Assembly (NCBI GenBank): GCA_947589735.1
Contig: CANQCR010000003.1
Span: 37,324-101,323 of the forward strand
DNA: 64,000 nucleotides
Direction: 5' to 3'
Origin: an uncultured Bacilli bacterium
GTDB taxonomy: Bacteria > Bacillota_I > Bacilli_A > RF39 > UBA660
The translations under genes and the position numbers were made by a program. Shown one piece after another: positions 7,605 through 58,471 of this stretch; position 1 is the stretch's first letter, and each line of letters begins with the position of its first letter. The notes below the pieces were generated by a model, which searched no databases, had not been told where the DNA came from, and saw only the letters and a program-made list of their open reading frames with translations.

Positions 7605-7622
7605 AATATCAAACCCTTTTAT

Positions 7623-8512: not shown

Positions 8513-8678
8513 CTTAATCACCCTCCTTTCTTTGAATAATTTACACTAATAATATATCATAATTTTATAATTTTTTAAATTACCTTTGCTTTTTCTTTAA
8601 CGATTAAAATAAAACTTGTTATATAAACGTTACTTTTCTAATATCATTTTGATATTTTAATTTTAAAAGTATCATTTA

Positions 8679-9947: not shown

Positions 9948-9959
9948 ATTATTTTATGA

Positions 9960-10003
9960 ATTAAAGATGTTTATTAATAAAGAAAAGAGAAATATTTCTC
10001 TTT
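9960..10003 (-). terminator. Putative terminator after the HAD/GT-C gene
   Basis: AAGAGAAAT/ATTTCTCTT palindrome followed by a T-rich run. Confidence 0.35.
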
Positions 10004-13216: not shown

Positions 13217-14042
13217 AAACGAGAATACTAAAAATTAAAACTTTATCATTAATAACAACATCCACAGGATCTCCAAAAGAATCACCATCAATAACTAATG
13301 AATAACGCATTAAAACGAAAACGACAATTAAAATACTAGCTAAAAGATAAGGTGAATTAACCGCATTAGCCCATAAAGAATAAAAAACGATGGTTAAGGT
13401 TAAAAAGATATTAAGAAAATTATTTAAATAATCTTTATTATAATATTTTAAAACTTCCCGGGATTCACTACCATTTTTAAGATACTCATTTCTTCTTTTA
13501 CCTAAAGCAGCATAGAAGGAAAAAGATAGAACTGTTAAATATAACCAATTAGATATTTCAACACCAATAGCTACCCCACCATAAATGACACGAATAATAA
13601 AACCAATCGCTAAAATAAAGATATCAACAATAGGAATATGCTTTAATTTTAAAGAATATAAGATGTTTATTAAAAGATAGCCATATAATAAAATAAAAGT
13701 ATAGACTAAAGAATAGTTATCATAAAAAAGATATGGAATAAAGTTAATAACAGAAGCAGTTATAAAGAGTATTATTATAAAGGTAAAAGCACTTTTTACC
13801 TTTATAATACCACTAGCTAGTGGTCGATCTTTTTTTATGGGATGCTTCTTATCTTTTTCTATATCACATATATCGTTAATAATATAGACAATGGAACACA
13901 TCAAAGAAAAAGAAATCAAGTTTAATATATTGGTTCCTAACATTTCAAAGTTTAAAATATTGCCACTAAAAATAATAGCCGCAAATATTAAAAAATTTTT
14001 CATATAGTGTTTAACACGCATTAATTTAAGATAATTTTTCAT
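13179..14042 (-). CDS. UbiA prenyltransferase family, decaprenyl-phosphate phosphoribosyltransferase (DPPR synthase)-like
   Basis: NDICDIEKDKK and RPLASG motifs, with 8-9 TM helices. Confidence 0.7.
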   Translation of the reverse strand: MKNYLKLMRVKHYMKNFLIFAAIIFSGNILNFEMLGTNILNLISFSLMCSIVYIINDICDIEKDKKHPIKKDRPLASGIIKVKSAFTFIIILFITASVINFIPYLFYDNYSLVYTFILLYGYLLINILYSLKLKHIPIVDIFILAIGFIIRVIYGGVAIGVEISNWLYLTVLSFSFYAALGKRRNEYLKNGSESREVLKYYNKDYLNNFLNIFLTLTIVFYSLWANAVNSPYLLASILIVVFVLMRYSLVIDGDSFGDPVDVVINDKVLIFSILVYGLYMGVVLYAI

Positions 14043-14149
14043 GATTCACCTACAATCGCCATAAACATCAATATTATAACATTATTTACTGTATTAAGCA
14101 ATTAAAACCATCATCAAGGAAATCCTAATTATCGCTATTATTTTATTAA

Positions 14150-14185
14150 TTAAAAGTGACGACAATAAAAAGAAGACTTATTTGT
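14150..14185 (-). terminator. Terminator of the histidine kinase gene
   Basis: AGAAGAC-N6-GTCTTCT hairpin followed by TTTTTATT. The hairpin includes the stop codon. Confidence 0.5.
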
Positions 14186-22712: not shown

Positions 22713-22714
22713 AG

Positions 22715-24172: not shown

Positions 24173-25626
24173 TATTTTACCTCCTTTGCAATTTGATCTT
24201 TATAATTCATTTGTCCTTCCAAAGCATAGGCAATATTTAAGACACATGCGTCATCATAACAATTACCTGTTATATTAACACCGACAGGTAGATTATTTAT
24301 AAAGCCATTAGGAATGGTAATTGAAGGGAATCCTCCAAAGTTACCAATCTGTAAATGTTCTTCTAAAATATGACTATTTTTATAATCTTTATTTTTAGCA
24401 TCATCTAAATATTTAGCTGGTCCACTACCAACGGGTAAGATAACAGCATCATATTTTTTAAATAATTCTTTCCACGTATCAACAAGTAATCTTCTAACTC
24501 TTTGGGCATTATTAAAGTAACGGTCTTTGTTTTCAGCTTGTAAAACGTATGAACCGATAATAAAACGCCTTTTAATTAATGATGAAAATCCTTCGGTCCG
24601 ATAGTTCTTCATCATTTCAACATAAGTATCCCCTTTGCTTCGAGGTCCAAAGATAATACCGGTTAAATTAGACATATTAGAAGTTGCTTCAGCACAAGAG
24701 ATAACAACATAAACAGAGTTTAGGGCATCTAATAATTTCATATCAACCGATACTTCATCAACACTCATACCGATCTTTTTACATAATTCTAATGTCTTAT
24801 TAAAATTAGCTAAATGTTCTTTTAATTCATCTGAAGCATCAGGATAATTATTTATATCACATATCTCTTTAACATAACAAAGTTTTTTACCTTTAACATC
24901 ATCACTTAAAGATTCATATAAATGTATATCACTAGAATCCCAACTAGTCATATCATTTTTATCAATGCCTTTCATCGCATCTGTTACAATAGCGGCATCT
25001 CTAACACTACGGGTAAGACATCCTAAGTGATCAAGACTTGAGGCAAATGGGAATAAGCCATACCGAGAAATCATTCCGTAAGTTGGCTTAAAACCGACAA
25101 TCCCACAGTAAGCAGCCGGTTTACGAATAGAGTCCCCTGTATCAGAACCCGTCGCAAAAGGATAAACACCAGCGGCGACAGATGCGGCACTTCCAGATGA
25201 ACTTCCGGCACACATTCTTTCTTTATCCCAAGGATTTTTAATAAATCCCGTATGCGCTGTTTTACCAAGGCCACCCATACCAAACTCATCCATCGTTGTC
25301 TTACCGATTAAAACAGCCCCACTACTTTTTAATTTCGTAACAGCCGTGGCATCAAAAAATGGTACATAATCTTTTAAGGTATTACTAGATCCCGTACTTA
25401 AAATATCTTTCGTACTATAGTTATCTTTTAAGCCATATGGAATACCTGATAATAAATTATCAGATACACTCGCCCCTTTAGCGTCATCAATAATTGTTAC
25501 AAAGGCATTACATTCTTTAGCGCAATCATGCGCTTTAGCTAAAGATTCTTTAACTAACTCTTCACTAGTTACCTCACCCTTCTTCAAGGCTTCGTGAAGT
25601 TCTACAATTCCTTTATCCATGTACAT
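24172..25626 (-). CDS. gatA: Glutamyl-tRNA(Gln) amidotransferase subunit A
   Basis: Amidase signature GGSSGGSAA. Confidence 0.9.
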   Translation of the reverse strand: MYMDKGIVELHEALKKGEVTSEELVKESLAKAHDCAKECNAFVTIIDDAKGASVSDNLLSGIPYGLKDNYSTKDILSTGSSNTLKDYVPFFDATAVTKLKSSGAVLIGKTTMDEFGMGGLGKTAHTGFIKNPWDKERMCAGSSSGSAASVAAGVYPFATGSDTGDSIRKPAAYCGIVGFKPTYGMISRYGLFPFASSLDHLGCLTRSVRDAAIVTDAMKGIDKNDMTSWDSSDIHLYESLSDDVKGKKLCYVKEICDINNYPDASDELKEHLANFNKTLELCKKIGMSVDEVSVDMKLLDALNSVYVVISCAEATSNMSNLTGIIFGPRSKGDTYVEMMKNYRTEGFSSLIKRRFIIGSYVLQAENKDRYFNNAQRVRRLLVDTWKELFKKYDAVILPVGSGPAKYLDDAKNKDYKNSHILEEHLQIGNFGGFPSITIPNGFINNLPVGVNITGNCYDDACVLNIAYALEGQMNYKDQIAKEVK

Positions 25627-25925
25627 TATCCCACCACCTTTGGAACTTTTATTTCGGTATCGACGTAGTTATCACAATTTTGAAGTAATTCATCAATGGG
25701 AACACTTTCTTCTTCGACATCTTCTCTTAGTTCATAAACAAAATCATCTAAGCAATGCGTCATCGGTTCAACCTCACCTAACCCATCAATCGCATTCAAA
25801 CGATCAATATCCGCATCAATCTTATCAAACTCATCTAAAACCATCTTGTTTTCTTCTGGTGTTAGACCAATCAATAACTTATCAGCTAAATCATCAACAA
25901 CTTCTTTGGTAAATACTTTTGTCAT
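25626..25925 (-). CDS. gatC: Amidotransferase subunit C
   Basis: 99 aa. The true ATG at 25925 is preceded by AAAGGAGG. The ORF-track start at 25952 is a TTG over-extension. Confidence 0.8.
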   Translation of the reverse strand: MTKVFTKEVVDDLADKLLIGLTPEENKMVLDEFDKIDADIDRLNAIDGLGEVEPMTHCLDDFVYELREDVEEESVPIDELLQNCDNYVDTEIKVPKVVG

Positions 25926-25940
25926 AATATCCTCCTTTAT

Positions 25941-25967
25941 ATGAAAAAACAAGTCCTAGGACTTGTT
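25941..25967 (-). terminator. Intrinsic terminator/attenuator between tRNA-Asn and gatC
   Basis: AACAAGTCC-TA-GGACTTGTT hairpin followed by a T6 run, immediately upstream of the gatC SD. Confidence 0.55.
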
Positions 25968-25977
25968 ATTTACTAAG

Positions 25978-26053
25978 TGGCGCCTGATGTAGGACTCGGA
26001 CCTACGACCTGCCGGTTAACAGCCGGATGCTCTACCGACTGAGCTAATCAGGC
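25978..26053 (-). tRNA. tRNA-Asn (GTT)
   Basis: Hand-folded cloverleaf; anticodon loop CTGTTAA; encoded CCA. Confidence 0.85.
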
Positions 26054-26056
26054 GCA

Positions 26057-26132
26057 TGGCGCTCAATGTAGGACTCGGACCTACGACCTGCCGGTTAACA
26101 GCCGGATGCTCTACCAACTGAGCTAATTGAGC
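26057..26132 (-). tRNA. tRNA-Asn (GTT), second tandem copy with a different acceptor stem
   Basis: Same body as the first copy; acceptor GCTCAAT/ATTGAGC; encoded CCA. Confidence 0.85.
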
Positions 26133-26385
26133 AATTAATAAATTATAGTCCCGATTGGGACGAAATATTCCGCGGTGCCACCCAATTTATCAATATTATT
26201 GATCACTTTATCGATTCTATTAAATCGTGTAATATGATAACGGATTACTTCCGATTAAGCCTACTTCGTTCAGCCTAACAACTAGTGGATGTTATTCATA
26301 ATAAACTTAATCGTTAGCTCACACCATACCTAACTCGCTTTTATCAGTTTTTATTATTACTTCTTCCACGTCAAAACGCTTATGT
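26133..26385 (-). promoter_or_regulatory. T-box riboswitch-like leader, probably Asn-specific
   Basis: Conserved T-box sequence AAATTGGGTGGCACCGCGG at 26170-26188, followed by a GTCCC-AATC-GGGAC hairpin and an A/T-rich tract. Stem I is closed by GATTAAG/CTTAATC and contains candidate AAC specifier codons. Confidence 0.6.
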
Positions 26386-26466: not shown

Positions 26467-28632
26467 TTAATCTTCTTTCTTGGGCATTAATTGATATTGC
26501 TTTCCTCCTTCAGATAAAGTATCTTCATATTCTATAAGATATGGAAGTAAAGCCTTCATATAACCATTTAACTCATCTGATATATGAGGAAAAGGATGAC
26601 TTAAATAATAATCATAAGCCTCTTTGAATTTCCTTTTCTTAAGAAAATGGCGCATCGTCTTTAAATCATCTACGCCTGAAACCTCGATATGCGTAATTTC
26701 TTCAGGTTCTGAGTGATGATGAACATTTTGGGTTTTTAATTGCCATAATAATTTTTTATAAGCTCTTGGATATGGCTTTTTAAAATTATTTTTGGCTTCC
26801 ATCATCCACTCATCACTTTGACAAAGCACAAAAGCCGTCTGATAATCACCATAATATAAAGCGTGAAGAAAGCGTTCGATAAGACTCGCATTTTCTAATT
26901 CATAAGGATTAAAATAAGTTGGCGTAGCGCCATAATTAGATTTCGTCTTTAAAATTAATCTAATAATTCGAAGAAGATTAACGTCATCCGCATCATCATA
27001 ATTTTGGCCATATACTTCTTTAGTTAAACGATCTTTTTCTTGAATTAAAGATGCCACTTCTTCTAACTCTTCTGGTGTAAAAAAGCCTTGCTGATAAAAC
27101 ATATCTTTAATTTTTTGTCTTAACACTTTAAGGCTATCTAGCCGTGGTTTGATATGCTCGTATTCGGTAATCGCTTTAACTAAATCATCTAAAATAAGAG
27201 CATAGATATGAAACTCTTCCGCCTTTTGATGAATAAGAAGATCATATTTCTCACACGCTAAAGCTAATTCATAAGCTTTTTTAAAATCAAGATTTTCAAG
27301 AGCGGTATAGAAGTTTGAAAAAATAGTCCCAGCATTATATTGCATATCAGGGTCAATAACACTAAAATTAGCATTATACTTTTGAACATCCAATAGACGA
27401 ACGATAAGTTTTCTTGCATTATTAAAGACTCTCGTTTGCTTCCTACTAGCATCTTTATACTTATAACATAATTCTAAAGCCTTTTCATAGTCTTTATCAT
27501 AAACAAGTTGTTCTAATGTTTTAATGTCAGAGTCTATATCATCAGCTTTTTTAGATATTACATTATTAGTAACTTCTACTTTAGGTGTTACATCAACAAT
27601 AGGAGCTTTAACCTGGCTTTTTGTTTTTGCATCAAGCCGGACTAGCGTTCCTATTAAAGACGTTACAGCATTAAAATAGTGCCAATCATTTCTTGGAATT
27701 TCAACTAAATCTTTAACTTCAAAGGCCGTAAGATAATCGCCATTTGCTAAGGCCGTATCAAAAAGCTTTTTAGGTTCTAATGGTGGATATGATGCTTTTT
27801 TTAAAGATAGTAATCCTTTTTTAATGGCTTCAGCATCATCAAGTAATTTATACATTACTTGCCACTTAGCTTGATATTTAGGAAAGACATAAACAATTAG
27901 TTTATCCATATTTCTTTTAATAGCGGCGCGGTCATTAAGCGAAATAGAAGCCATTAAGCGCTCATATATCCTACCAAAATTACGTTTACGCCAAACATCA
28001 GCTTGTAAATACTTTTTTTCTTCTTCAAAAGTTAATTGATCTCTTTTATCAGCATACTCTTGATAATAGAAAAGCATTTTCTTATCATAAACCTGTAACG
28101 ATAAATTATGAATATTATGGGTTGTACCCCGAATATGGCCAAATAAAGATAATTCTTCGGTTTTAACATCATGATAATCTCTTATAGCATCTTCAATTGC
28201 ACCCACGATAATCTTTCTTTTATAATTCGTAAATATTGGTAAATAATCACTACTATCCTGATATGATAATTGGTGAAGGAGTTCATCACATTCTATATCC
28301 ATATTAGATAGTGTTTTTACTAAACTAATAATACAAGCCATGGTAAGATCTTCGTTGGTATCTTCCCTTAAAGCAATGGCATCTTTAAAACAAGCAATAG
28401 CTTCAACATACCTTTTACTACTAGCGATTCGAACACCTTTTTCTAGAGTTCGCATCGCTTGATAACCATTTTTAGAAAATTGATAGTGACCCCTTTTAAC
28501 TCTTACAAGAACACCCGTTTCAACTAATTTATGAACTTGGTATTTACTTAAACCACCTTCATATAACACTTTCGTCTCGTAATCTATTTGCGGTAGACGT
28601 TTTAAAGTATTTAAAGATTCTTTTATATCCAT
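26467..28632 (-). CDS. Hypothetical 721-aa protein with an N-terminal wHTH (AbiEi-like RGxY motif) and a helical-repeat body
   Basis: N-terminus GVLVRVKRGHYQF; the rest is predicted all-helical and TPR-like. Confidence 0.55.
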   Translation of the reverse strand: MDIKESLNTLKRLPQIDYETKVLYEGGLSKYQVHKLVETGVLVRVKRGHYQFSKNGYQAMRTLEKGVRIASSKRYVEAIACFKDAIALREDTNEDLTMACIISLVKTLSNMDIECDELLHQLSYQDSSDYLPIFTNYKRKIIVGAIEDAIRDYHDVKTEELSLFGHIRGTTHNIHNLSLQVYDKKMLFYYQEYADKRDQLTFEEEKKYLQADVWRKRNFGRIYERLMASISLNDRAAIKRNMDKLIVYVFPKYQAKWQVMYKLLDDAEAIKKGLLSLKKASYPPLEPKKLFDTALANGDYLTAFEVKDLVEIPRNDWHYFNAVTSLIGTLVRLDAKTKSQVKAPIVDVTPKVEVTNNVISKKADDIDSDIKTLEQLVYDKDYEKALELCYKYKDASRKQTRVFNNARKLIVRLLDVQKYNANFSVIDPDMQYNAGTIFSNFYTALENLDFKKAYELALACEKYDLLIHQKAEEFHIYALILDDLVKAITEYEHIKPRLDSLKVLRQKIKDMFYQQGFFTPEELEEVASLIQEKDRLTKEVYGQNYDDADDVNLLRIIRLILKTKSNYGATPTYFNPYELENASLIERFLHALYYGDYQTAFVLCQSDEWMMEAKNNFKKPYPRAYKKLLWQLKTQNVHHHSEPEEITHIEVSGVDDLKTMRHFLKKRKFKEAYDYYLSHPFPHISDELNGYMKALLPYLIEYEDTLSEGGKQYQLMPKKED

Positions 28633-28642
28633 TGTAGCACTC

Positions 28643-29836
28643 CTAACTTTCGGTATTAAATAATGAACTATCTTCTAATGATGCTAAAGACTCAAGCAAG
28701 GAATTAACGATATTTTTGTCATGATCATCCATAGCGCTTCTACTCGTCATAGCCATAGCTTCTTTATAACGATGTTCTTTAACCAAACCATTTAAAGATA
28801 TCTGGCGGTAAGGGTTATTCATTTTAATTACTTTTCGAATATTTAAAAAATTATAGATGCGACTTAATAAATTGTCATAGATGGCAAAATCGCGGTCTTG
28901 AGTATGTTCAAAAATAGCGTTGGCAAAACGTTTGGCATTAAGATAATCATTACGATTAATAGCCTCATAAAAACTCATCTTCAAAGGTCCATGATACTTA
29001 TAATTAGTCTTATAAGTATCAAGATCAATTCCTTGATGTTCAACAATAAAGTTAAAACAGTTAAACAAGTCAATAATAATACTTAATCTTGCATCATCAA
29101 TTTTTAATTCTTTTTTCAAATGATACAACTTAGATAGATAGTAATAAGCTGCATCATAATCGTTATTCATAACCGCATTATATAAAGCCTCATAAACACG
29201 GCCATATTCACTATTTTCCACATTTTTTTGAGGTTTAACTTTAGCGACACCAAGACTTAAATCTCTTAAGACCTTAACATCTAATTTTGGTAGACTCATC
29301 CGATATGTCCGAAGTGTTTGAAAAGCACGATCGTAATCTTTTTGAATGACACAATCTAAAAATAGCTTTAAGCCATCTTTTTCATCTTTAAAAATTTTAC
29401 TGCGCAAATCTTCTAACTTTTTATTAGATGAACCCATCATCGCTGTTAGAAGTAAGGCGTAAGTATAAAGGGTTTCTTTATTATTTTTATCTTTATTTAA
29501 CTCACAACATTTGCTTAATGCTTGATAAGCCGCATCATAGTTGTGTTTCATTATATCATAGATAAGCAAATAGTAATAAGCTTCATAATCTTTAATGGAT
29601 AATGAAGTAAAATAGGTATAAAACTCATCTAACTTATCATTCATTAGATAATAAGCCATTAAGTCAGTATCAATTTCATATTTAATGGTAACTTTATAAT
29701 AGCCGCGACGTGTTCGCTCAAGGATATTATCAAGTATCAACTTATTTATCATCCGTGCATTGAAGCCAAGACTTCTTAACTTTTCGGTCCGGATAACCTC
29801 ACCATTAAATGGTAGTAAAGCATCTAACTCCATCAT
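28643..29836 (-). CDS. Hypothetical 397-aa paralog of the preceding gene (wHTH plus helical repeats)
   Basis: N-terminus ILERTRRGYYKV; similar repeat composition. Confidence 0.55.
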   Translation of the reverse strand: MMELDALLPFNGEVIRTEKLRSLGFNARMINKLILDNILERTRRGYYKVTIKYEIDTDLMAYYLMNDKLDEFYTYFTSLSIKDYEAYYYLLIYDIMKHNYDAAYQALSKCCELNKDKNNKETLYTYALLLTAMMGSSNKKLEDLRSKIFKDEKDGLKLFLDCVIQKDYDRAFQTLRTYRMSLPKLDVKVLRDLSLGVAKVKPQKNVENSEYGRVYEALYNAVMNNDYDAAYYYLSKLYHLKKELKIDDARLSIIIDLFNCFNFIVEHQGIDLDTYKTNYKYHGPLKMSFYEAINRNDYLNAKRFANAIFEHTQDRDFAIYDNLLSRIYNFLNIRKVIKMNNPYRQISLNGLVKEHRYKEAMAMTSRSAMDDHDKNIVNSLLESLASLEDSSLFNTES

Positions 29837-39017: not shown

Positions 39018-39074
39018 TTTTATCCCCCCAAGAAAACCAATATAACTATTCTAACATAATTTTAAGCATAATAA

Positions 39075-39100
39075 AACATGAACTTTAAAGTTCATGTTTC
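39075..39100 (-). terminator. Terminator after tRNA-Glu
   Basis: A 12/13-bp perfect palindrome AAACATGAACTTT/AAAGTTCATGTTT followed by a T-rich run. Confidence 0.55.
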
Positions 39101-39108
39101 TTTTTCAA

Positions 39109-39185
39109 TGGTAGCCTGTACGGGATTCGGACCCGTGTATGTCACCTTGAGAGGGTGATGTGTTAAACCACTTCACCAACAGGCC
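39109..39185 (-). tRNA. tRNA-Glu with anticodon CTC (CUC)
   Basis: 77-nt cloverleaf closely resembling B. subtilis tRNA-Glu, but the anticodon loop is CTCTCAA. CCA is encoded. Confidence 0.7.
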
Positions 39186-39209
39186 AAGTAATGCCTTTAA
39201 GACATTACC

Positions 39210-39238
39210 ATTTTATCATTAATATCATCTTTTGACAA
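39210..39238 (-). promoter_or_regulatory. Putative promoter for tRNA-Glu (TTGTCA-17-TAAAAT)
   Basis: Hexamer spacing is correct; the element lies about 18 nt upstream of the mature tRNA 5' end. Confidence 0.35.
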
Positions 39239-39265: not shown

Positions 39266-42200
39266 TTATGATTTCATTGTAAGACATTTAGCTTTTTCTT
39301 TTAAGTCTAACAAACTAGGAGATGTCGTCTGTCTTAATATATCTAGTCCTTTATGAAAAGCTTCTCTATAGATATCAGGTTTCATTTGAAGAGTTGATGC
39401 GACGATATCATCATCATAATCTGCTGGTAAAATTATCTTTAAAGTTACAACTAAAGCTTCTTTTGATGGCATTATTGTACATAGTAAATTATAAATTGTC
39501 GCATTTGCACTACTTTCACGATTATCATTTGCCATCTTCTTTAGTTCTTCATCGCTTTCTTTAAGGCGACGTTTTACTTTTTGTGTTAAGACACGCCACT
39601 TAGCGCGATCAGTCGTTGAAGTTATTGGATGTGGCAATACATCTTTATCATAATCAGTTCCAAATTGGTGATGGAATAGTTCCCTCTCATCAAAAGTTAG
39701 AGTGTCTAAAACTAAAGCTAAACGTTCTTTCGTTGTAGCATATGTTCTAGTAGCTGATGAAGGTGTATGATACTTTAGATATTTTCTAATCTTGGTACTT
39801 ATTTTAGAATATTCTTTACTTTCTTCCCCACTTAAATAACTAATTGCTACAGGATGCGTATAATCAGTTCCATTATGCTTTTGGAAGAAGGCTAATTCAT
39901 CTTTCGATAAAATAGTTAAAGCTTGTTCTAATTCCTCTAAAGTTGTGTGAAAAAGATCAACAATAACAATATCCTTCCTATGTCTAACAATTGGTTTCTT
40001 ATGAAGTTCGCTTTGAAGGTTATTACAAATCAAGCGATATCTTCTTGCTTCTTCGCCAAACAATGGATGTGGAATAATAGGAGCATCAAAATCAGTGCCA
40101 TTACGTTTAATAAACAATTCTTTTTTATCTTCTGGAAGTTTAAGTACTGCATCTTTTAATGATGTTGCATCCGTATCAAAAGTTACTAATAAGTCTTCTT
40201 CTTCGACATTCATACCTTTAATACGACGACCAATCTTTCTTTTTAATTGATTATATTCTTCGCTAGACGCACTATCAACTAATTGTGGTCTTACTGTTGT
40301 AAGGTCATCACCATTATATTTTCTAAATAAAGCTTGTTCTTCTAAAGTTAAAGAAGCTATAACATAACGTAATTTTTCTTCCGTTGTGTCAAATAGTTGA
40401 ACCGGTGAAGTTTCTTTAGGTTTACTACCTTTTTCGATATGATACTTCAACCGATAATGGATTCTGGTATAGACCTTTTTTTCTTCAGCATTAAGAGGAG
40501 CTGGTGTATAAGGCTTATCATAAACAGTTCCATTACGCTTAATAAATAGCTCTTTTTCTTCAGGGGTTAAAACAGTATCTAGTAAATATTGCAATTTATC
40601 AGGCGTTGTTTTATATATATCTAAAACCATCAGTTTAGAAGTCCGTTGATGGGCTTGTTTTTCTTCTTTCTTCATCTTAGAAATAATTGCCCGTAGATGT
40701 TTACTAACTACTTTATAGTCTTCCCTATTTTGACCTAAAAGAGGTCGTGGGGTGATTAAAGAAGAATAACTAAGGCCATTACGTTTGATAAATAAAATAC
40801 GTTCTTCACTTGGTAGCTGATCAATAGCAGCATGAAGTTTTTCATCAGTCGTTTTAAATTTGGCTAAAAGATCTTCTGTTGGTTTCTTTTCTAAACTTTT
40901 TAAACGTTTAGATATTTTAATGCAAATTTTATTATATGTTTCTGATTCCTCAGCCGTAAGTGGTGAGAAAGTAGTTACATTAAAGAAATCATTACCATTA
41001 CGTTTAACAAACAAAGTTCGTTCTTCTGGAGTAAGAGAATCAAAAACGATTTCAAAGTTATCTCTTGTAGTTTTAAAGTGAACTAAGATAGGCTCTGGGA
41101 TATTTCTTCTTATTTTAGCTGCTACTCGATGGTATTGTTTAATATCTTCCCCTTTTGCTCGTTTGCGTGGCACTAAAGTAGTGTAGTCAGTACCATTATA
41201 CTTAATAAACAAATCTCGTTCTTCAGCTGTCAATACCGTTTCAACTAAAATCTTTAAGGTTTCCGGTGAGATATGGAAACGTTCCGCTACACTTAAAAGT
41301 TTAACTTCTTTAGGTGTCTTCGTCGTCCGCTTTTTACCTTTATTTAAATCATTAACAATTCCTTGAACTTTTTTATGAACGACCATATAAGTTTGGGCCT
41401 GACTAAGTGTTAACTTCCGTAACCGGACTGGTTTATCATATTCATAACCATTACGATATGTAAAGATAGTTTGCTCATCATCAGATAAAGTTTCAACGAT
41501 ATCCTTTAGAGTTACAGCATCTGTTTTAAACAAATCGGTTAAACGGTAAAGATCTGTTTGGTTATAACACATTAATCTAATTCGAATTTTTTCCTCTAGC
41601 GCATCATACATAGCTTGTGTTTCTTTATCAAGTTTACACAATTTAGCGGGAGCATCATACGTAAAGGCATTTCGTTTTTGGAATAATGCTAATTCTTCTG
41701 GCGTTAACGTCTCTAAAACACTCTTTAAAGAATAAATGTTAGTTTGAAGCATACTGGTTACTAAATAAATTTCTTGGGTGCGAAAACGTTTGGTCATAAC
41801 GAGACCTGGACGATAATTTTTTATGAGACTAAAGACTTTTGTTTTAACACGGTTCCATTCCTCATCATGAACTTGAGATAAAAGTTGATAATTGACAGGA
41901 GCTTCAAAGTCATTACCGACACGATCATAGAAGACCTCTTGTTCCCAAGGCTCTAAAACGCCAACAACTGTTCTTAAAATATCCGGTGTTGTATCAAAAG
42001 CTACTGATACTGTTGGATGTTTTGTTTTTAAGTGTGCAAAACACGTTTTTAAATACTTAACTTGGGTTGGTGTTAAAAGACTATTTTCGGTATAAATCTT
42101 AACATATCGTTTAACAATCGGAATAATGCTATATAAAACTAAACGACGATCTTGAATTGACAACAATGATTGATCTTCAAAGAAACGCGTAAACTTCGTT

Positions 42201-44674
42201 CTAATACTTTCATCAAGATAAGATAAAACTTTAAAAATAGCCTCACGATCGGCAGTATCACATAGTACTTCCATTGATTCATATAATTTATCTAGTTCTT
42301 CTTGTAATTTTGGGACAATAATTTGATATAACTTTGTCATGCGATAAGGTGATAGCATATTAAACTCAGGACTTTGCAAATAATTGCTACCATATCTTGA
42401 AATTAATAGGTTAAACTCCACCGTACCTAAAGCCTCAACAGCAACATCAACATCATTGATATTTTTATATTTTAATAAAGTCGTCAAAGATAACTGATCA
42501 TTTATTGATACGTTATAAGTACCAGTACTAGCTAAGTTTTCAGCATAAGTTAATATTTTTTCTAAGATTTGGCGATATTGTTTTTCAGGATTTTTACTTA
42601 AAATAGAAAGTATCCTACTATAGTTAAACACATCATCACCATAGGCATCGACAATGCTCTTAACCTCTTCTTCAGATAAATATTTTAATGCTTGATATAT
42701 TTTTTCAGCAAATGATTCATTTTTCTTTTGAGCAACTTTCTTTTTCCGCATTTCTGAACGTAATCCTTTAGGAATAAAACTCCGTAATTTAGGAATAATA
42801 GATTGCGCTATATAATATTCATATGATGGATGAAGAACAACATCAGTTGGTTTTAAAAGACCATTTTTATATTTCTTTCTTAAAATAGTTAAATCATTAT
42901 CGTCTAATTTAAGGAGAATGCTTTTTAGTACCTCTTCATCATCAATACCTAATAAAGCTTTAAGGCCAACATTATTAGCATTGGAAAAATTACGCACTAT
43001 TTGGCGTGACATAGCCCCCGTTGCAAAAATTCTTAATTTAGCTAAAATGGCATCACCATAAGCATCATCAATAATATGGGCACGAGGTTTATCAAAGTTT
43101 TCACCAAACATTCTTTTAAGGGTCTCTCGTTCCTTTACATCTAATAAAGGAATAACATTAAGATATGTATTTCTTTGACAATGAAGATATTTATTTAAGG
43201 TATTATTAAACCTTGGACTATTATCCAATGCGCCTTCTTCATCGCGAGCACTTGGTTTATCAGAGTAGACACCTAATCCACTTTGTCTAGAATAACGTTT
43301 TAACTTCCGCAAAGCTTTAGCTTCAATTTGACGAATACGCTCTCTCGTAACCCCAAATTGTTTACCTACTTCTTCCAAAGTTCTACCTCTACCATCGTCG
43401 ATGCCAAAGCGCAATCTTAAAACCTTGTTCTCCCGTGGCGTCAAGCGATCTAAAAGAGGTTCTAAGGCATCTTTTAAAGATGAACTTATAAAGTCTTCTT
43501 CTAAATTTTCATCATTAGGAATAAAACTTCCAAGTTCACTATCTTCTTCATCACCAATAGGATTTGATAAACTAAGTGGTGAGCCAAGATTAAGAACATT
43601 AACCCAATCCTCAATCTTCTCTTTAGAAACACCCATATATTCAGCTTGCTCTTCAATGGTTGGTTCACGGCCAATTTGTTCTTTTAGAGCATCATAACGC
43701 CGACGATACTTATTTAAAGCTTCGACCATATGAACAGGAATTCTAATCGTATGTGATTGATCAGCAATAGCTCTTGTAATTGACTGTCTTATCCACCAAG
43801 TTGCATAAGTAGAAAATTGATATCCTTTATCCGGATCAAACTTATCAACAGCCTTCAAAAGGCCTAAATTACCTTCCTGAATCAAGTCTAGGAAAAGCAT
43901 TCCTCGGCCGACATATCTTTTAGCAATACTAGGAACAAGTCGTAAATTATGAAGAATAATTTGATCACGCGCGCTGGCATCGCCATCTTTATATTTGTGC
44001 GCTAAAGACGCAACTTCTTCGGGCGATAATAACGTGTGCCTTATGGATTGTAAATAATCTCTAACCGGATCACCTGTAATGCTATATTCTTTTTCTATTT
44101 CTTCAAATGTTTGATATTTCTCATCGGCATCGCTTACATCAATTCCTTTAACTAAGCAATAACTCTCAATTAAAGGATATATATCGCTATCAAATAAAGC
44201 ACTTATTTTTTCCCTTGATGGCTTACCTTTAACACTTATAACACTGGAAATAGCATCATCTAATAAACTAATATTGTTAATTAAATAACTATAATCATCA
44301 GGTGATAAATCATAGCCAACAGCCTGAAAAGCAGACATCATAATATTTAGTGATGCTAAAGCCTGTTTACTATTTGAAAATGACGGTAAATAGTTTTTAG
44401 CAAAAGCAACTAAAAAAGATGTATTATCACTACTAGATAAACGTTCTAAAGCGACCTCTTCATATTTAGAAGAATACACTTGTCTTAACGTTTCTTCAAA
44501 ATTATTTATAGTTAAATTAGGCTTATCCGCCATAACACCTAAAGTCATTTCAAATAATTCTTCAACATTTTCAACATGCATCCAAGCGTAGTCTTCTTCG
44601 ACTTCTTTTCTTACTTTAGCAATATAGCTAAAGACCTTGCTACGATCATGAGCTGATAATTCTTCTATTTGCAT
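39266..44674 (-). CDS. rpoD: Giant (1802-aa) RNA polymerase sigma-70 family factor: a primary-type sigma domain (regions 1.2 to 4) followed by a ~1300-aa C-terminal extension of tandem region-4.1-like repeats
   Basis: Region 2 ([54 protein letters not shown]) and region 4 ([14 protein letters not shown]...[28 protein letters not shown]) are near-consensus. They are followed by at least 11 repeats of F-x-TT..L(T/S)xEE+xLFxKRNGTDY. Confidence 0.85.
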
Positions 44675-44735
44675 AATCTCACCATCTTTTTAATCAATAT
44701 AATAACATATTTTAAGTAAGAAATACCAGCCTTTT

Positions 44736-51648: not shown

Positions 51649-54285
51649 ATGAATAAATACTTATTTTCAGTAGTAATTCCAATATATAATTGTGAGAAAT
51701 ATTTAGATGAAACAATTAATAGTATTGTAAAACAAACTATAGGATTTAAAAATATTGAGTTAATATTAGTTAATGATGGATCAACGGATAATAGTGAACA
51801 AATATGTTTAAAATATAAAAATAAATACAAGAACATAATTTATATAAAGCAAGAAAACGCTGGTGTAGCAGAAGCCCGCAACAAAGGATTAGAAATCGCC
51901 TCTGGAGAATTAATTAATTTCTTAGATAGCGATGATAAATGGTCTTTAAATACATTAAAAATAGTTTATGACAATTATTTAAAACATAAAGATGTACATA
52001 TATTTAGTACTAAGATGTTCTTTTTTGATTATCAAAAAGGAAACCATATATTAAATTACAAATATAAAGAAGATAAAATAGTTGATATTAGAAAAGACTA
52101 TAAATACATTCAATTAAGTACATGCTCATGTTTTATAACTAAAGATGTTATAAAACAATATCAATATGATTCAAAAATAAAATATGAAGAAGATACCAGA
52201 TTGATAAATGAAATATTAATTAAAGAACATCAAATGATGGTTTTATCAAAACCTGTCTATTACTATCGTTGCAGGAAAAATCAAAGTTCTGCTAGTCAAA
52301 ATCCTTTGGCGAATAAATCTTGGTATACCATAACACCATACAAAGTATTTAATTATTTATTTGAAAAATCGAAAAAAGAATTTGGATATGTTTTAGATTA
52401 TTTTAAATATCTAATCGCTTATGATATTGAGCGGAGAATAGCATCGACATCTAATAATGAATTATTAACAAAAAAAGAACAAGAAAATTATATAAAATGT
52501 ATTAGTAATTTTATAGAAGAAATAGATTTTAAATTTTTTAAGGAGCAAAAGAAAATTTCTCCATTACATTTAATGTATATTTATAAAATTAAGTATAATG
52601 AAGATTATTCATCATTACTTTCAATTGAAAATAATAAAATTATCTGTAATTTAATAAAAAATCATGATAATACAATAGATTTAATTCACATAGATGATAT
52701 ATATATAGAAGAAAGTATCTTACAAATAATAGGACGTATAAATCAAAATTTATGTAAAAAAGAAAAAATTGGATTCATTGCAGATGGTAAAAACCAAAAA
52801 ATAGAATATTATAAATTACATAGTAACTATGATGAAGTATCATATCGTAATGAAAAAATTACTGACTATATAGGTATAAATATTAAAGTTGATATTAATA
52901 AAATACACGAATTTGGTTTTATCTATAGTAAAGATAATAATTTCTTAAGTTTAGTATTTTCAAATCGGTGCAACCTAACCAATCTACTAAAGGGAAGCTA
53001 TTATTTATATAAAGATAAAATGGTAACTTTAGATAAAGGAAGATTTATCATAAGAAAAAGAAGTATTTTTAAATGTATTCAACGAGAATTTAAAAATATT
53101 GCTGGTTTAATTAAAAATAGAAAAATTAGACAATTAGCTATTAGAATGTTAATATTATCTAGTAAGCCATTTGCTCCTAAAAATATTTGGTTATTATCAG
53201 ATAGAGTTAATGTAGCAGATGATAATGCTGAACATTTATTTAAATATATAAATGAATATCATAAAAAAGAAATTAATGCTTATTATGTAATTTCTAAAGA
53301 TTGTAAAGATTTTGAACGAATGAAACAATATGGTAAAGTAATTGATAACAGCTCTCTCAAATATAAATTTTTATTTTTTAATTCTAAATTTATAATTTCA
53401 TCACATGCTGAAACATATATTACTAATCTATTTGGTAAAAAAAACCAATATTACAAAGATTTATTCAAATTTAAATATGTCTTTTTACAACATGGAATAA
53501 CAAAAGATGATATATCTTCATGGTTAAATCCAAATACTAAACATATTGATATGTTTGTTTCAGCTACTCAGAAAGAATATGAATCATTATGTACTTATGG
53601 CTATAATAAAAATGTTATTAAATTAACAGGATTTCCTAGATATGATAGTTTGATTAATAAACAAATGCAGTATGATTTACATAATACTATTATGATATCA
53701 TTTACTTGGAGAAATACCTTTGCTAGTAAAATAGATAAAATAACGGGTAAGAGAGTATATAATAATCAATTTAAAAATACAGATTATTATAAATGGATTA
53801 ATGGTTTATTAAATGACAAAAAACTTCATGAAGTATTAAAAAAATATAATTATAAATTAAGATTTATACCTCATCCAAATGTATTACCACAAATTAAAGA
53901 TTTTGATTTGAATGAATTTGTTGAAATTGCCGATGGCGGAATAAATTATCAAAAAGAGTTTTGTGAAAATAAGCTACTTATAACTGATTACTCAAGTGTA
54001 TTCTTTGACTTTGCTTATTTAAAGAAACCAATTATATATTTTCAACCAGATAGAAAAGCATTTTATGAGGGTCAAATATATAATAAAGGATATTTTGATT
54101 ATGAAACAATGGGGTTTGGACCTTGCTGTACAGATTATGATACATTCATAAAAAAATTAATCAATTTAATAGAAAATGATTGTAAAAATCCCCCAAAATA
54201 TATTGAAAGAATAGAAAAAACATTTAAGTATACAGATCATAATAATTGTAAAAGAGTATATGAAGAAATATTGAAATTGGAATAG
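51649..54285 (+). CDS. Bifunctional GT2 glycosyltransferase / CDP-glycerol glycerophosphotransferase (TagB/TagF-like) teichoic-acid biosynthesis protein
   Basis: N-terminal GT-A (VVIPIYNCEKYL...VNDGSTDNS...DSDD); C-terminal TagF-like domain. Confidence 0.75.
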   Translation: MNKYLFSVVIPIYNCEKYLDETINSIVKQTIGFKNIELILVNDGSTDNSEQICLKYKNKYKNIIYIKQENAGVAEARNKGLEIASGELINFLDSDDKWSLNTLKIVYDNYLKHKDVHIFSTKMFFFDYQKGNHILNYKYKEDKIVDIRKDYKYIQLSTCSCFITKDVIKQYQYDSKIKYEEDTRLINEILIKEHQMMVLSKPVYYYRCRKNQSSASQNPLANKSWYTITPYKVFNYLFEKSKKEFGYVLDYFKYLIAYDIERRIASTSNNELLTKKEQENYIKCISNFIEEIDFKFFKEQKKISPLHLMYIYKIKYNEDYSSLLSIENNKIICNLIKNHDNTIDLIHIDDIYIEESILQIIGRINQNLCKKEKIGFIADGKNQKIEYYKLHSNYDEVSYRNEKITDYIGINIKVDINKIHEFGFIYSKDNNFLSLVFSNRCNLTNLLKGSYYLYKDKMVTLDKGRFIIRKRSIFKCIQREFKNIAGLIKNRKIRQLAIRMLILSSKPFAPKNIWLLSDRVNVADDNAEHLFKYINEYHKKEINAYYVISKDCKDFERMKQYGKVIDNSSLKYKFLFFNSKFIISSHAETYITNLFGKKNQYYKDLFKFKYVFLQHGITKDDISSWLNPNTKHIDMFVSATQKEYESLCTYGYNKNVIKLTGFPRYDSLINKQMQYDLHNTIMISFTWRNTFASKIDKITGKRVYNNQFKNTDYYKWINGLLNDKKLHEVLKKYNYKLRFIPHPNVLPQIKDFDLNEFVEIADGGINYQKEFCENKLLITDYSSVFFDFAYLKKPIIYFQPDRKAFYEGQIYNKGYFDYETMGFGPCCTDYDTFIKKLINLIENDCKNPPKYIERIEKTFKYTDHNNCKRVYEEILKLE

Positions 54286-54298
54286 TGAGGTAAAGAAT

Positions 54299-55252
54299 AT
54301 GAAAATCAGTATAATAGTACCTGTTTATAATACATCAGAATATTTAAAAGAATGTTTAAACTCACTAGTAGATCAAACCATCCAAGATTACGAAGTTATT
54401 GTTATTGATGATGGTTCTACAGATGATAGTCTTAAAATAATAAAAGAATATTATGAACATTATCCTAAAATTATAAAATATAAATCTATTAAAAATAGTG
54501 GCGTTTCACATGCTAGAAATGTAGGACTTAGTATGGCAAAAGGCGAATATGTAGGTTTTGTTGATAGCGATGATTATATTGATAAAGATATGTATTTAAA
54601 ATTATATAATAAAGCTAAAGAAGAAAAGGCCGAAATAGCACTTTGTGGATATTATAAATTAAAAAATAAAAAACTAGAGCCTGCTAAAATAAAAGAAAAC
54701 AAAGAATTTGAAAATAGTGTTAAAAACAATCCCAAAATACTAAAATATTCATCACCATTTGCTGCAGTTCATTTGTTTAAAAAGAAATTAATAGATAATA
54801 ATAAAATAATTTTTGAAGACTATAAAATATTTGAAGATTTATTATTTACATATAAAGCATATAAACATGCAAATAAAATAGTTAAAGTATTTGAACCTTT
54901 ATATTATTATAGAATAAGAGACAATGGGTCATCAGCTACCCAAGGCTTTTCTAAAAACTATACTCAACTATTTACCATTATGAATGAATTAAAAGAATAT
55001 TATGGTGATTATATCCCTCAAGAATATTTAACATATATTGCTTTAAAACATATATTTATAAGATTTCGAACGAAAACAACTTTAAAACAATTTGTGACTA
55101 AATATAAATTTGTAAATAAAGCATTTAAATTCTTAAATAGTTTTGATAGTAACTGGAAAAATAATTCTTATTTTGATAGGCATCGTAAAAGTAAACATTT
55201 TTATACTTTGTACTGGGTTATTATTCCAATGAAAGTTGGAACCACTAAATAA
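54299..55252 (+). CDS. GT2 family glycosyltransferase
   Basis: IIVPVYNTSEYL...IDDGSTDDS...DSDD. Confidence 0.8.
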   Translation: MKISIIVPVYNTSEYLKECLNSLVDQTIQDYEVIVIDDGSTDDSLKIIKEYYEHYPKIIKYKSIKNSGVSHARNVGLSMAKGEYVGFVDSDDYIDKDMYLKLYNKAKEEKAEIALCGYYKLKNKKLEPAKIKENKEFENSVKNNPKILKYSSPFAAVHLFKKKLIDNNKIIFEDYKIFEDLLFTYKAYKHANKIVKVFEPLYYYRIRDNGSSATQGFSKNYTQLFTIMNELKEYYGDYIPQEYLTYIALKHIFIRFRTKTTLKQFVTKYKFVNKAFKFLNSFDSNWKNNSYFDRHRKSKHFYTLYWVIIPMKVGTTK

Positions 55253-56542: not shown

Positions 56543-58471
56543 TTACATTTTTAATCTATTAATCACACCATTAGATGGTCCACTTACAAAATCTTCACCC
56601 TCAAGATGTGAAATTGTACCATTATATTTAATATCTTCTAAAGAGGGCTCATCATTAAGATTATCGTCCATCTTATCAGACATTTCATTTTCTTTTTCAG
56701 CTACAATTTCTTTGATAAAGTCTACCCTTGCCTTTTGTGTTTTTATTTCATCAGCTATCCGAAGCGTAGAATTAAGCATATTCTTTAGTTTCTGTAAAAT
56801 AAAAGGCCGGTCGGTTTGTGAGACTTGTTCTATCGTAACTAAAAAACTATTATGATAACTTCTAAACCGTTCTGCAATTTGACTGATATCCGTTAAAGTA
56901 TCTTGAACTGTACTTATAAACTCCGCCGGATATCCAGCATCAATATTAAGGATACTTTCATAAAGTTGGGGTGTAAAATCAGTACGTAAAACTGATAAAT
57001 CATTCATAATTTGACTAAAGTTATCTTGAATCTCTTGAATTAAATCTTGGATATCATCCTTTACTTTTGATGCTTTAGGTAAGATCTCACCTACATCAGG
57101 TTCTAAATCACCTAGATTAGGTGCGGTGGTATCATCCTCTTTAGCGATATCAGGTTTTTCTTGACTATTTAAAACCTTATCTAAAGGCATATGATACTTT
57201 GCTTCGATCGTATCTAAAGTAGCGATAATTTTTCTTCTACAAATACTTTTGAAAGAATTATCTGTAACAAAAGAATTAATATTTTTAGGAACGTTATCAT
57301 TATCCCAAGTTGGATCATCATCTGGTTGATTAGTCGTTATAAAACGTGCGGATAATCTTTCTTTTCTTTGAACATCAGGGATTGCCATTAATGGTCTTGC
57401 TTTTGCTATATTATTTTGAAGGGAACTAGCATCCCGTTGATAACTTTCAATCGTTATCGGAATGATATAACCATTATGAATTGTTCTAGCATCAATTGTT
57501 GTCTGATCAAAAGGTGCCCAAGAATCGTCTAGTTCTACAGTTGGATAACCAAACTTAGCCAAAAAGGCTGCTTTATAAGCGTTCCATGTCCATGTTGTAT
57601 CACTAACAATGGTTCTTGCCTTAGAACTAACTCCTTCTAATTCTCCGATTAGTTTCTTTCGATATTCTCTAACAGCTCGATCTAAATATAAGAAACGTTC
57701 TTCCTCGGTTAAAACATCAACTTTAACTTTATCCTCTTTTAAGTATTTACGAAATAAACTATTAATCTCTGGAACATCTTGTTTCGTAATGCGATATTCT
57801 TCAACAAAATATTTTGTCTCACCAGCATCATTAATACCCGCTTTAGCAACTGTTAAAAAGACATTACCATCTAATCCAGCAGCGGTAAGTTTTTTATTAT
57901 TTTTACGAATAATTAATTTAGAAACTGATGCTACCTCATAAAAAGAGTTTATAACATATGGACTATCACAGTGACTAAACTCCGCTTTTCTAGCTTGAAT
58001 AAAAGCTTCTCCATCATATAAACGTTTAAACTCACTAATAAGTGATGGTGGGAGTAAGTTTTGAATATGAGAGTAACGATTTAAACGATTATCCAAACTT
58101 GTAAGCTCAATTTGTTTTAAACTGATCTTAACCCCGTTATGCATAGCTTGTTCATATTCTTGGCTAGCCCACAAACCACCATTTTCATCTTCATAATATG
58201 TTATTTCATCAATGGAAGCAGCATCTTTTTTACAGATAAAAGAGCCATTATCATAATAATAAGCATTAACACCGACAAGCATATCACCAAGCTGTTGTTG
58301 AAGCTTAGATGGTGTATATCCAGCTTTTAAGATTTCATAAACTTTGTGCTTATCCAAGTGTAGGTTATCTTTTGTTATAAAACCTTGGCTTAATAACCCG
58401 TCAAACTCTTGTTCACTAATGTCATAGACAGATACACTATCATTGGTCATTAATACTACCACTTTAATCAC
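56543..58471 (-). CDS. Hypothetical 642-aa protein
   Basis: ORF only. Confidence 0.5.
   Translation of the reverse strand: MIKVVVLMTNDSVSVYDISEQEFDGLLSQGFITKDNLHLDKHKVYEILKAGYTPSKLQQQLGDMLVGVNAYYYDNGSFICKKDAASIDEITYYEDENGGLWASQEYEQAMHNGVKISLKQIELTSLDNRLNRYSHIQNLLPPSLISEFKRLYDGEAFIQARKAEFSHCDSPYVINSFYEVASVSKLIIRKNNKKLTAAGLDGNVFLTVAKAGINDAGETKYFVEEYRITKQDVPEINSLFRKYLKEDKVKVDVLTEEERFLYLDRAVREYRKKLIGELEGVSSKARTIVSDTTWTWNAYKAAFLAKFGYPTVELDDSWAPFDQTTIDARTIHNGYIIPITIESYQRDASSLQNNIAKARPLMAIPDVQRKERLSARFITTNQPDDDPTWDNDNVPKNINSFVTDNSFKSICRRKIIATLDTIEAKYHMPLDKVLNSQEKPDIAKEDDTTAPNLGDLEPDVGEILPKASKVKDDIQDLIQEIQDNFSQIMNDLSVLRTDFTPQLYESILNIDAGYPAEFISTVQDTLTDISQIAERFRSYHNSFLVTIEQVSQTDRPFILQKLKNMLNSTLRIADEIKTQKARVDFIKEIVAEKENEMSDKMDDNLNDEPSLEDIKYNGTISHLEGEDFVSGPSNGVINRLKM

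Follow-up and report, generated by a model that had tools for sequence, protein, structure and literature searches.

A giant RpoD-like sigma factor of an uncultured gut bacterium whose C-terminal extension is a probable array of sigma domain 4 copies

Few bacterial proteins have been studied as thoroughly as sigma factors, and the plan of their domains, running from region 1.1 to region 4.2 or reduced to sigma2 and sigma4, is usually regarded as settled. A 64,000-nucleotide stretch of DNA from an uncultured Bacilli bacterium (contig CANQCR010000003.1, positions 37,324 to 101,323), referred to here as the window, encodes on its minus strand a sigma-70-family protein of 1802 residues that does not stop where such proteins normally stop. 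The initial annotation of this locus had noted that the open reading frame (ORF) continues for about 1340 residues past region 4.2, and this holds, with 1334 residues lying beyond residue 468. The locus thus raises the question of what the extension is and what kind of sigma factor carries it. In this article, evidence is presented that an RpoD-type core with intact motifs for reading the -10 and -35 elements is fused to a very long extension that very probably arose from sigma domain 4, as judged by profile comparisons, and the possible roles of this architecture are discussed.

Integrity of the reading frame and its RpoD-type core

The first alternative to be weighed is an artefact, be it a frameshifted or chimeric assembly that joined rpoD to a repeat gene lying downstream, or a pseudogene in decay. 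By simple arithmetic, a frame of 1802 codons would stay open by chance with a probability of about 1e-62 in DNA of about 32% GC, in which stops make up about 7.6% of random codons. Six contigs, two independent sequencing runs among them, encode the exact protein, and a 99% identical variant (L007) is encoded in a separately binned metagenome-assembled genome (MAG). More distant relatives of 1813, 1394 and 1645 residues, with tails 50%, 26% and 22% identical to the present one, preserve the layout of sigma factor plus tail. Relatives of the same architecture, which the initial annotation had proposed to look for among orthologues, thus exist at 99, 50, 26 and 22% identity. The orthologues of 1802, 1813 and 1394 residues come from three species represented by "uncultured Bacilli bacterium" MAGs of rabbit ("Lapin") gut, and the three species have in common the gene order cutA, rhomboid, DUF4186, zinc-ribbon protein, rarA, sigma factor, murL, murD, ireB, ruvX, DUF1292, yceG, methyltransferase and RNase J (rnj).

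Selection on the gene points in the same direction. Against the 99% strain, the ratio of non-synonymous to synonymous substitution rates (dN/dS) is 0.088 for the whole gene; the core differs at 6 synonymous and 0 non-synonymous sites, and the tail at 27 synonymous and 10 non-synonymous sites (dN/dS 0.098), which shows the tail to be translated and to evolve under purifying selection. Core and array share a single ORF in at least 52 of the 153 family representatives, and the fusion is kept in relatives down to 22% identity. The frameshift, stop codon or assembly chimera that the initial annotation had named as its possible undoing is not what the independent assemblies contain, since they carry the ORF intact, and an artefactual or pseudogenic origin was rejected as exceedingly improbable. 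One local peculiarity is that the codons of the N-terminal domain (44096-44674) differ from those of L007 with a dS of 0.21 (20 synonymous and 8 non-synonymous differences), whereas dS is about 0.03, roughly sixfold lower, in the rest of the gene, a pattern suggestive of a tract acquired by recombination or of a region that varies locally.

Regions 2, 3 and 4 of the core score above the Pfam cut-offs at 77.3, 48.1 and 69.8 bits, which places the protein in the sigma-70 family, while the weak match to region 1.2 (17.9 bits against a cut-off of 22) is accompanied by an hhalign alignment with canonical region 1.2. The conserved RpoD box, whose segment quoted in the initial annotation is present in the translated ORF, and the residues of region 4.2 that read promoter motifs are retained. 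Identity between the core and canonical Firmicute RpoD proteins is 60-65%, and the nearest relatives of the core among the matches listed are primary RpoD/SigA factors; this word-indexed search was swamped by ordinary RpoDs, and the cluster of the query itself is not among the matches listed. The RpoD models of NCBIfam cover only residues 194-468 and fall short of their equivalog cut-offs (NF006666, 372.6 against 572 bits; NF004208, 355.8 against 555; TIGR02393, 320.2 against 354), the N-terminal third of NF006666 finding no counterpart in the protein, which accounts for its low score. An earlier description of the core as near-identical to the SigA/RpoD consensus is therefore accurate for the most conserved motifs only, given 60-65% identity over the core and 372.6 of the 572 bits required.

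The unmatched portion corresponds to a further departure from the usual plan. Region 1.1 (PF03979) has no match in the protein, although nearly all of the 120 closest RpoDs listed possess it, and the profile of the N-terminal domain (N-domain) fails to align with canonical region 1.1 in hhalign. Its place is occupied by a family-specific domain of about 190 residues, so that the protein is not an otherwise canonical sigma-70, as had been supposed. A search with a trimmed alignment of this N-domain retrieved 5 short JGI loci. In one JGI locus (L021, 80-1558), a 493-residue ORF comprises N-domain and core with no repeats; in another (L022, 1761-4003), an N-domain of 193 residues and a core-repeat-helix-turn-helix part of 555 residues lie in adjacent ORFs, an arrangement that indicates either a split gene or a frameshift.

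The C-terminal extension and its family

Canonical RpoD proteins stop at the point marked here by RKLRHPSRSKKL, and exactly there a disordered-looking linker of 24 residues leads from the true sigma4 into the extension. An iteratively refined hidden Markov model (HMM) resolves 15 copies of a 63-residue unit between residues 493 and 1704, the first four of which are more diverged (independent E-values of 1e-11 to 1e-15), and the 94-residue spacer behind them is possibly a sixteenth, very degenerate unit. The repeats are visible at the protein level only, with no tandem repeats in the DNA of the gene, which implies that they are old. Paralogous units within the protein are about 27% identical, positional counterparts in the 50% orthologue are 53% identical, and 14 of the 15 best matches fall on the diagonal. 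Linkers of 3-21 residues, mostly rich in Lys and Arg, separate the units. A coiled coil was considered and rejected, with only a weak CCDC-167 match obtained.

Four independent lines of evidence connect the unit with sigma domain 4. A profile of 43 units aligns by hhalign with true region 4 (92.5% probability, E 4.7e-7) over 31 columns that comprise the helices of region 4.1 and the RFG turn, the region-4 profile having been built from the true region 4 of this family together with canonical RpoDs. Against all PDB sequences, the unit profile retrieves domain 4 of sigma-A/RpoD first (E 1.5e-4), and the predicted structure of the units has the three-dimensional fold of sigma4. In the window protein itself the repeats reach 22.3 bits for Pfam r4_2, under the cut-off of 25.7, and the hhalign match is limited to region 4.1; the repeats of distant relatives, however, pass Sigma70_r4 or r4_2 outright, with 114.8 and 77.3 bits in P0231, where one match to r4_2 is full-length, 86.4 in P0241, 59.7 in P0143 and 48.1 in P0138.

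The end of the protein provides a complementary link. The last approximately 95 residues form a separate conserved domain that constitutes the C-terminus of 85 of the 99 family members examined. This domain aligns with true sigma4 along 56 columns that span the complete helix-turn-helix (HTH; hhalign 96.3%, E 1.7e-9) and barely matches the repeat unit (10.9%), and its profile finds region 4 of sigma-A in the PDB (1rio, 1tty, 1ku3, 3dxj; E about 2e-6, profile positions 7-63 of 70), whereas a word-indexed search with the same profile returned 9 small fragments. Residues 1716-1793 would accordingly form a complete sigma4-like HTH domain with putative DNA-binding ability. Taken together, the hhalign results, the Pfam matches in relatives and the terminal domain replace the earlier notion of an extension made of some unknown domain with that of a serial duplication of sigma domain 4, in which about 15, possibly 16, degenerate sigma4 copies and one intact copy make up the tail.

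The units have nevertheless departed from their presumed ancestor. In an AlphaFold2 (AF2) model of four units, resting on a shallow alignment of 8 sequences, an extended loop of about 14 residues stands in place of the first HTH helix, and the equivalents of sigma70 R584-Q589 are not conserved across 443 units; without the first helix and with unconserved base-reading positions, the unit is not expected to be a working reader of the -35 element. What is conserved across the 443 units is the hydrophobic core and an additional N-terminal mini-helix, I-Y-E-Y-F, along with a basic patch formed by R30 and P-K-I-K-R-x-L (K58, K60, R61), which aligns with the AKALRKL segment of sigma70. At the position equivalent to F563 of the sigma70 RFG motif, which we take to be a beta-flap contact, most units here have Asn (KRNG). 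The AF2 model assigns high confidence to each unit (mean predicted local distance difference test, pLDDT, 85.6) and low confidence to their arrangement (predicted template modelling score, pTM, 0.37), with no defined packing between units, and so portrays the array as independently folded beads on a string. In four orthologues the tail has an isoelectric point (pI) of about 9 and a net charge of +23 to +28. Across 142 arrays the median pI is 9.04, with 85% above pI 8, and the charge resides mainly between the units, which average +0.08, in linkers of about 16 residues that average +2.4 and contain 19.5% Lys.

Proteins with such arrays form a large family. When 1.84 billion cluster representatives (clusters at 50% identity) were searched exhaustively by HMMER with the unit profile, 804 proteins matched at E <= 1e-3, of which 261 reached <= 1e-10 and 52 reached <= 1e-30; many are 1000-2000 residues long with 10-19 units. 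Compared with this, a word-indexed search with the tail was a gross under-count, with only 4 clusters. Architectures were assigned with local HMMs to the best 150 of the 804 matches and to four proteins of the window lineage. The arrangement of the window protein (N-domain, core, repeats, terminal HTH) occurs in 31, the same without the terminal HTH in 10, core and repeats with or without terminal HTH in 11, repeats followed by core in 5, and a short sigma2-type core with repeats in about 14, while 51 have repeats and terminal HTH with no core and 26 have repeats alone. Some of the core-less matches may be fragments, for example P0137, which clusters with a 1645-residue protein. P0138 is a robust core-less case, a stand-alone array of 18 units in 1607 residues with 11 members identical in length.

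Family genes often occur side by side. Locus L013 (1-10224 of a JGI contig, identical in L014) carries five of them in tandem, four for extended RpoD-like sigma factors of 746, 808, 651 and 712 residues that differ in their module sets and one for a protein of N-domain and 5 repeats without a sigma core; DivIVA and cell-envelope genes follow. P0184 belongs to a trio of family genes of 700, 870 and 357 residues. In locus L015, the stop codon of P0138 overlaps the start codon of an array-bearing sigma factor of 1090 residues (11821-11824); this pair (within 2447-15096) precedes ftsW/spoVE and spoIIP and lies directly downstream of a set of Tad/Flp-type pilus genes (TadE, a CpaE-like ATPase, T2SSE and two T2SSF).

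The family module was absent from phage and plasmid records searched by tblastn, and an origin in phage or defence systems was rejected after PADLOC and PHROGs scans without a match. No model of the module exists in Pfam, NCBIfam, PADLOC or PHROGs, and no description of such a protein was found in the literature searched, so the initial annotation's view of the extension as undescribed stands within these sources. On the basis of its sequence, the protein genuinely belongs to a family that is carried by uncultured gut Firmicutes and is so far uncatalogued.

Role of the sigma factor and possible function of the array

Whether the protein is the primary sigma factor of its lineage can be approached through its rate of evolution, as a primary sigma that is essential should rank with the best-conserved genes. 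Canonical Firmicute RpoD cores share 85.7% identity with each other, whereas family cores average 42.5% among themselves and 48.1% with canonical cores, and a neighbour-joining tree groups the canonical cores in one pure clade, with all 48 family cores outside it. The three Lapin species are approximately equidistant, the window species being 89 and 88% identical to the species of P0002 and P0003, respectively, in RNase J, 71 and 71% in MurD, 75 and 74% in RuvX, and 63 and 64% in MurL, with RarA at 76% to the P0003 species. At the same locus, the sigma core is 86% identical to P0002 and only 49% to P0003, although the genes around it keep 60-88% identity between the window species and the latter.

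Genomic context adds to this picture. The dnaG-rpoD operon is the housekeeping arrangement in Firmicutes, and dnaG adjoins none of about 14 independent family loci. Two RpoD genes from other MAGs served only as controls for dnaG linkage: P0093 lies directly downstream of dnaG, and P0050 follows a 623-residue gene that the DnaG probe did not recognise. Family members occur in tandem paralogue clusters of 3-5 genes, and some family hosts are spore-formers, as indicated by YunB and SpoIIP; spore-formers also have SigA. Because region 1.1 is absent, the core diverges rapidly, dnaG linkage is lacking, paralogues stand in tandem and some hosts form spores, the giant sigma factor is probably an accessory, group-2-like paralogue of RpoD, and its earlier framing as a housekeeping sigma is probably wrong.

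The opposite view, that this is the sole primary sigma factor of its lineage with an array appended, is appreciably less likely yet has arguments of its own. The full core from region 1.2 to region 4.2 with its promoter-reading residues, the primary RpoD/SigA factors at 60-64% identity that are its nearest core relatives among the matches listed, and the circumstance that Firmicutes normally do without group-2 sigma factors are all in keeping with it. The 64-kb window contains no other sigma factor, no stand-alone array and no dnaG, and the gene is syntenic in three species with core amino acids unchanged against the 99% strain. These facts, among them the complete retention of -10/-35 reading residues and a syntenic gene that is single-copy in the 64 kb and free of non-synonymous core changes within the species, count against an accessory role, as does the consideration that the fast divergence between the window and P0003 could reflect replacement by a paralogue at one locus and not relaxed constraint. 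A primary role would, on the other hand, have to accommodate the loss of region 1.1, scores under the NCBIfam RpoD cut-offs, a core only 49% identical between equidistant species and family loci that, unlike control P0093, are never dnaG-linked, as well as clusters of 3-5 paralogues and members in spore-formers that must also have SigA.

Regarding the array, the known structure of the RNA polymerase holoenzyme offers a starting point: sigma4 sits on the -35 element and the beta-flap, with its C-terminus at the upstream edge of the promoter complex. It is tentatively proposed that the core would bind RNA polymerase and read ordinary -35/-10 promoters, and that the array, by virtue of this position of the sigma4 C-terminus, would project upstream of the complex as flexible beads on a string, acting as a multivalent tether and landing platform. 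The Lys-rich linkers and the basic patch (R30, P-K-I-K-R-x-L) might hold upstream DNA without reading its sequence, the terminal HTH could provide a second anchor, and the individually conserved surfaces of the units might dock partners, including the stand-alone arrays encoded together with such sigma factors elsewhere. As a whole, the explanation that combines a sigma4-array protein, an accessory role and a tether or platform function is the best available, and we hold it to be a serious candidate that falls somewhat short of an even prospect.

Several points tell against parts of this explanation. High Lys content and basic pI are common in proteins of AT-rich genomes, which weakens the argument from charge, and the units, whose net charge is near zero, bear a conserved acidic face (E3, E10, E11, D13, E23). 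The loop in place of the first HTH helix is likewise unfavourable, the low pTM behind the beads-on-a-string picture could merely reflect the shallow alignment of 8 sequences, and no co-encoded stand-alone array lies within 64 kb in the window lineage.

Almost equally likely, and hence just as tentative, is that the array is a protein-protein regulatory module rather than a DNA tether, in which the sigma4-like units would be decoys or docking sites, whether for the beta-flap tip, for anti-sigma-type partners, for the core itself by folding back onto it, or for co-encoded stand-alone arrays, paired with them much as a sigma factor is with its anti-sigma. The units keep the scaffold of sigma4 and not its DNA-reading residues or first HTH helix, they are neutral on average, and their individual identity is kept between species, as expected for specific partners; sigma4 is, moreover, a classic target of anti-sigma factors and activators, and stand-alone arrays adjoin array-bearing sigma factors, once with the stop/start overlap typical of sigma/anti-sigma pairs. 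Less easily reconciled with this module are the Asn that most units carry at the presumed beta-flap contact and the undefined packing between units in AF2; the partner, too, is conjectural, with no stand-alone array in the 64-kb window. The initial annotation had suggested that the extension might serve as a tethered anti-sigma or decoy, or as a scaffold; all of these are candidate roles, and its derivation from sigma4 renders the idea of a decoy or scaffold more concrete.

A third possibility, which is improbable, is that of a pro-sigma, held inactive or localised by its array until proteolysis frees a sigma factor of normal size. The disordered-looking linker stands precisely where canonical RpoDs end, and Firmicutes provide precedents in pro-sigma E and pro-sigma K, but the known pro-sequences are short and N-terminal, a 15-unit array with one-to-one orthology and a dN/dS of 0.1 would be costly for a mere pro-peptide, and arrays also occur alone or N-terminal to cores.

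A more speculative reading, somewhat less likely than either the tether or platform proposal or its protein-binding counterpart, is that sigma4 arrays represent a new class of transcription-machinery component, multivalent chains of pseudo-sigma4 units that, either fused to RpoD-like or short sigma cores or as partner proteins, might bind RNA polymerase (for example at beta-flap tips), one another, or regulators. Should this reading prove true, it would imply multi-polymerase hubs or an array-to-array logic of sigma/anti-sigma control unlike any described system, loosely comparable to the C-terminal repeats with which eukaryotic RNA polymerase II offers a landing platform.

The surrounding window and comparison with known systems

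The features of the gene and its immediate flanks are collected in Table 1. The window is AT-rich chromosomal DNA of 21-39% GC with genes mainly on the minus strand, and a rarA-like gene upstream ends 61 nt before the sigma start codon. A terminator scan found no terminator between the sigma stop codon and the tRNA-Glu gene, which has a rare CTC anticodon and is preceded by a promoter-like TTGTCA-17-TAAAAT with a TG extension (39073-39238, minus strand); the promoter scan as a whole was not above chance, with 39 sites against 37 expected.

Table 1. Coordinates of the giant sigma factor gene, its parts and its flanking elements in the window.
Feature	Residues	Positions	Strand	Evidence and remarks
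Shine-Dalgarno-like GGTGAG		44678-44683	minus	3 nt 5' of ATG; sequence read directly
Whole sigma-70-family gene	1802 in total	39266-44674	minus	Uninterrupted ORF; ATG 44674-44672, TAA 39268-39266
Family-specific acidic all-alpha N-terminal domain	1-193	44096-44674	minus	pI 4.4, net charge -16
RpoD-like sigma core, regions 1.2-4.2	194-468	43271-44095	minus	Pfam and NCBIfam RpoD models
Region 1.2	202-232	43979-44071	minus	Pfam (weak)
Region 2	240-307	43754-43957	minus	Pfam
Region 3	318-390	43505-43723	minus	Pfam
Region 4	407-459	43298-43456	minus	Pfam
Linker from true sigma4 to array	469-492	43199-43270	minus	Outside every HMM
Sigma4-derived units 1-4	493-549, 572-634, 655-710, 730-794	42293-43198	minus	Repeat HMM
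Spacer	795-888	42011-42292	minus	Non-significant repeat-HMM match at residues 806-874 (independent E-value 0.35)
Sigma4-derived units 5-15	889-1704	39563-42010	minus	Eleven well-conserved 63-residue units
Terminal complete sigma4-like helix-turn-helix domain	1716-1793	39296-39529	minus	HMM coordinates, hhalign, PDB profile search
tRNA-Glu(CTC)		39109-39185	minus	Rfam and ARAGORN; starts 80 nt past sigma stop codon
Terminator-like hairpin, 12 bp		39073-39100	minus	Terminator scan; 3' of tRNA-Glu(CTC)

Elsewhere in the window, a T-box leader (26153-26383, 121.8 bits) stands ahead of two tRNA-Asn(GTT) genes (25978-26132), an amidase/GatA gene (24172-25626), GatB (22715-24172) and a class II tRNA synthetase of the Asp/Asn/Lys type (21333-22712), all within 21333-26383 on the minus strand; it is unusual for a T-box to precede tRNA genes and a transamidation operon. 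Three consecutive radical-SAM genes, two with SPASM, and a class I/II aminotransferase gene occupy 798-5954 (minus strand), where GC is lowest (24-25%), and could form a cluster for cofactor maturation or for modification of ribosomally synthesized and post-translationally modified peptides (RiPPs). The only sizeable plus-strand block (51649-55252; 21-24% GC, reversed GC skew) encodes an 878-residue glycosyltransferase/glycerophosphotransferase of teichoic-acid type and a 317-residue glycosyltransferase, and may represent a cell-wall glycopolymer island gained by horizontal transfer. At 14178-16106 (minus strand), a hybrid histidine kinase fused to a receiver domain (HisKA, HATPase_c, Response_reg) adjoins a lipid-metabolism block that encodes three acyltransferases, a CDP-alcohol phosphatidyltransferase and an AMP-binding enzyme. 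Large ORFs of 721, 397 and 642 residues (minus strand, within 26467-29836 and 56543-58471) lack any Pfam match at E <= 1e-5, and an ORF of 1070 residues (10004-13216) matches only an N-terminal HAD domain.

The significance of the giant sigma factor lies in the existence of a large family with a different sigma plan, in which duplication has multiplied the domain for the -35 element up to about 19 times, its DNA-reading residues have disappeared and selection maintains it. Arrays fused to sigma cores in several ways or encoded as separate partners suggest that transcription control in abundant, uncultured Firmicutes of the gut has a layer yet to be explored, provide structural and biochemical groups with a concrete, testable object, and illustrate that routine annotation as RpoD can hide non-housekeeping paralogues.

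Among known systems, sigma domain 4 itself (Sigma70_r4/r4_2) and the small sigma4-like proteins YlxM/UPF0122 (PDB 1xsv) are ones from which the present units differ in lacking the first HTH helix and the base-reading residues and in adding the conserved mini-helix IYEYF; no report of tandem sigma4 arrays of up to about 19 copies was found in the literature searched. With group 1 factors (RpoD/SigA), the protein has in common the order of regions 1.2, 2, 3 and 4, the RpoD box and the residues of region 4.2, while it lacks region 1.1 and dnaG linkage, adds the 1334-residue sigma4-derived array, evolves far faster and scores under the NCBIfam equivalog cut-offs.

Group 2 factors are non-essential paralogues of RpoD, such as RpoS, HrdA-D of Streptomyces and SigB-E of cyanobacteria. 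The resemblance extends to an RpoD-like core, near-canonical promoter reading, additional paralogues, a lost or altered region 1.1 and faster divergence; none of them, however, is known to have a repeated sigma4 or a comparable extension. To our knowledge, group 2 sigma factors are not a feature of Firmicutes.

The concept of a C-terminal extension on a sigma factor is familiar from extracytoplasmic function (ECF) factors. In ECF41, ECF42, ECF56 and OrbS, the extension modulates the activity of its own factor in cis, and these factors consist of sigma2 and sigma4 only, with a single SnoaL-like, TPR or Cys-rich domain (PMC3426412, PMC7730460, PMC9023288). The core described here is, by contrast, of RpoD type with a 15-16-fold duplication of sigma4 as its extension, and assignment to the ECF type was rejected because regions 1.2 and 3 are present. 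MzaA, the sigma factor of the MZA anti-phage system, is likewise a long sigma-70 protein, and its model matches the core at 308 bits; its extra sequence is N-terminal, whereas it is C-terminal here, and this identity was also rejected, given 308 against 800 bits, no PADLOC match in the extension, and housekeeping neighbours without MZA genes.

By analogy only, the array recalls those of Myb, TALE and mTERF proteins, in which small helical units likewise stand in tandem and repeats are individually conserved. There is no homology between them, and while those arrays wind into a continuous superhelix, the AF2 model (pTM 0.37) would have the sigma4-derived units of the giant sigma factor fold as independent beads.

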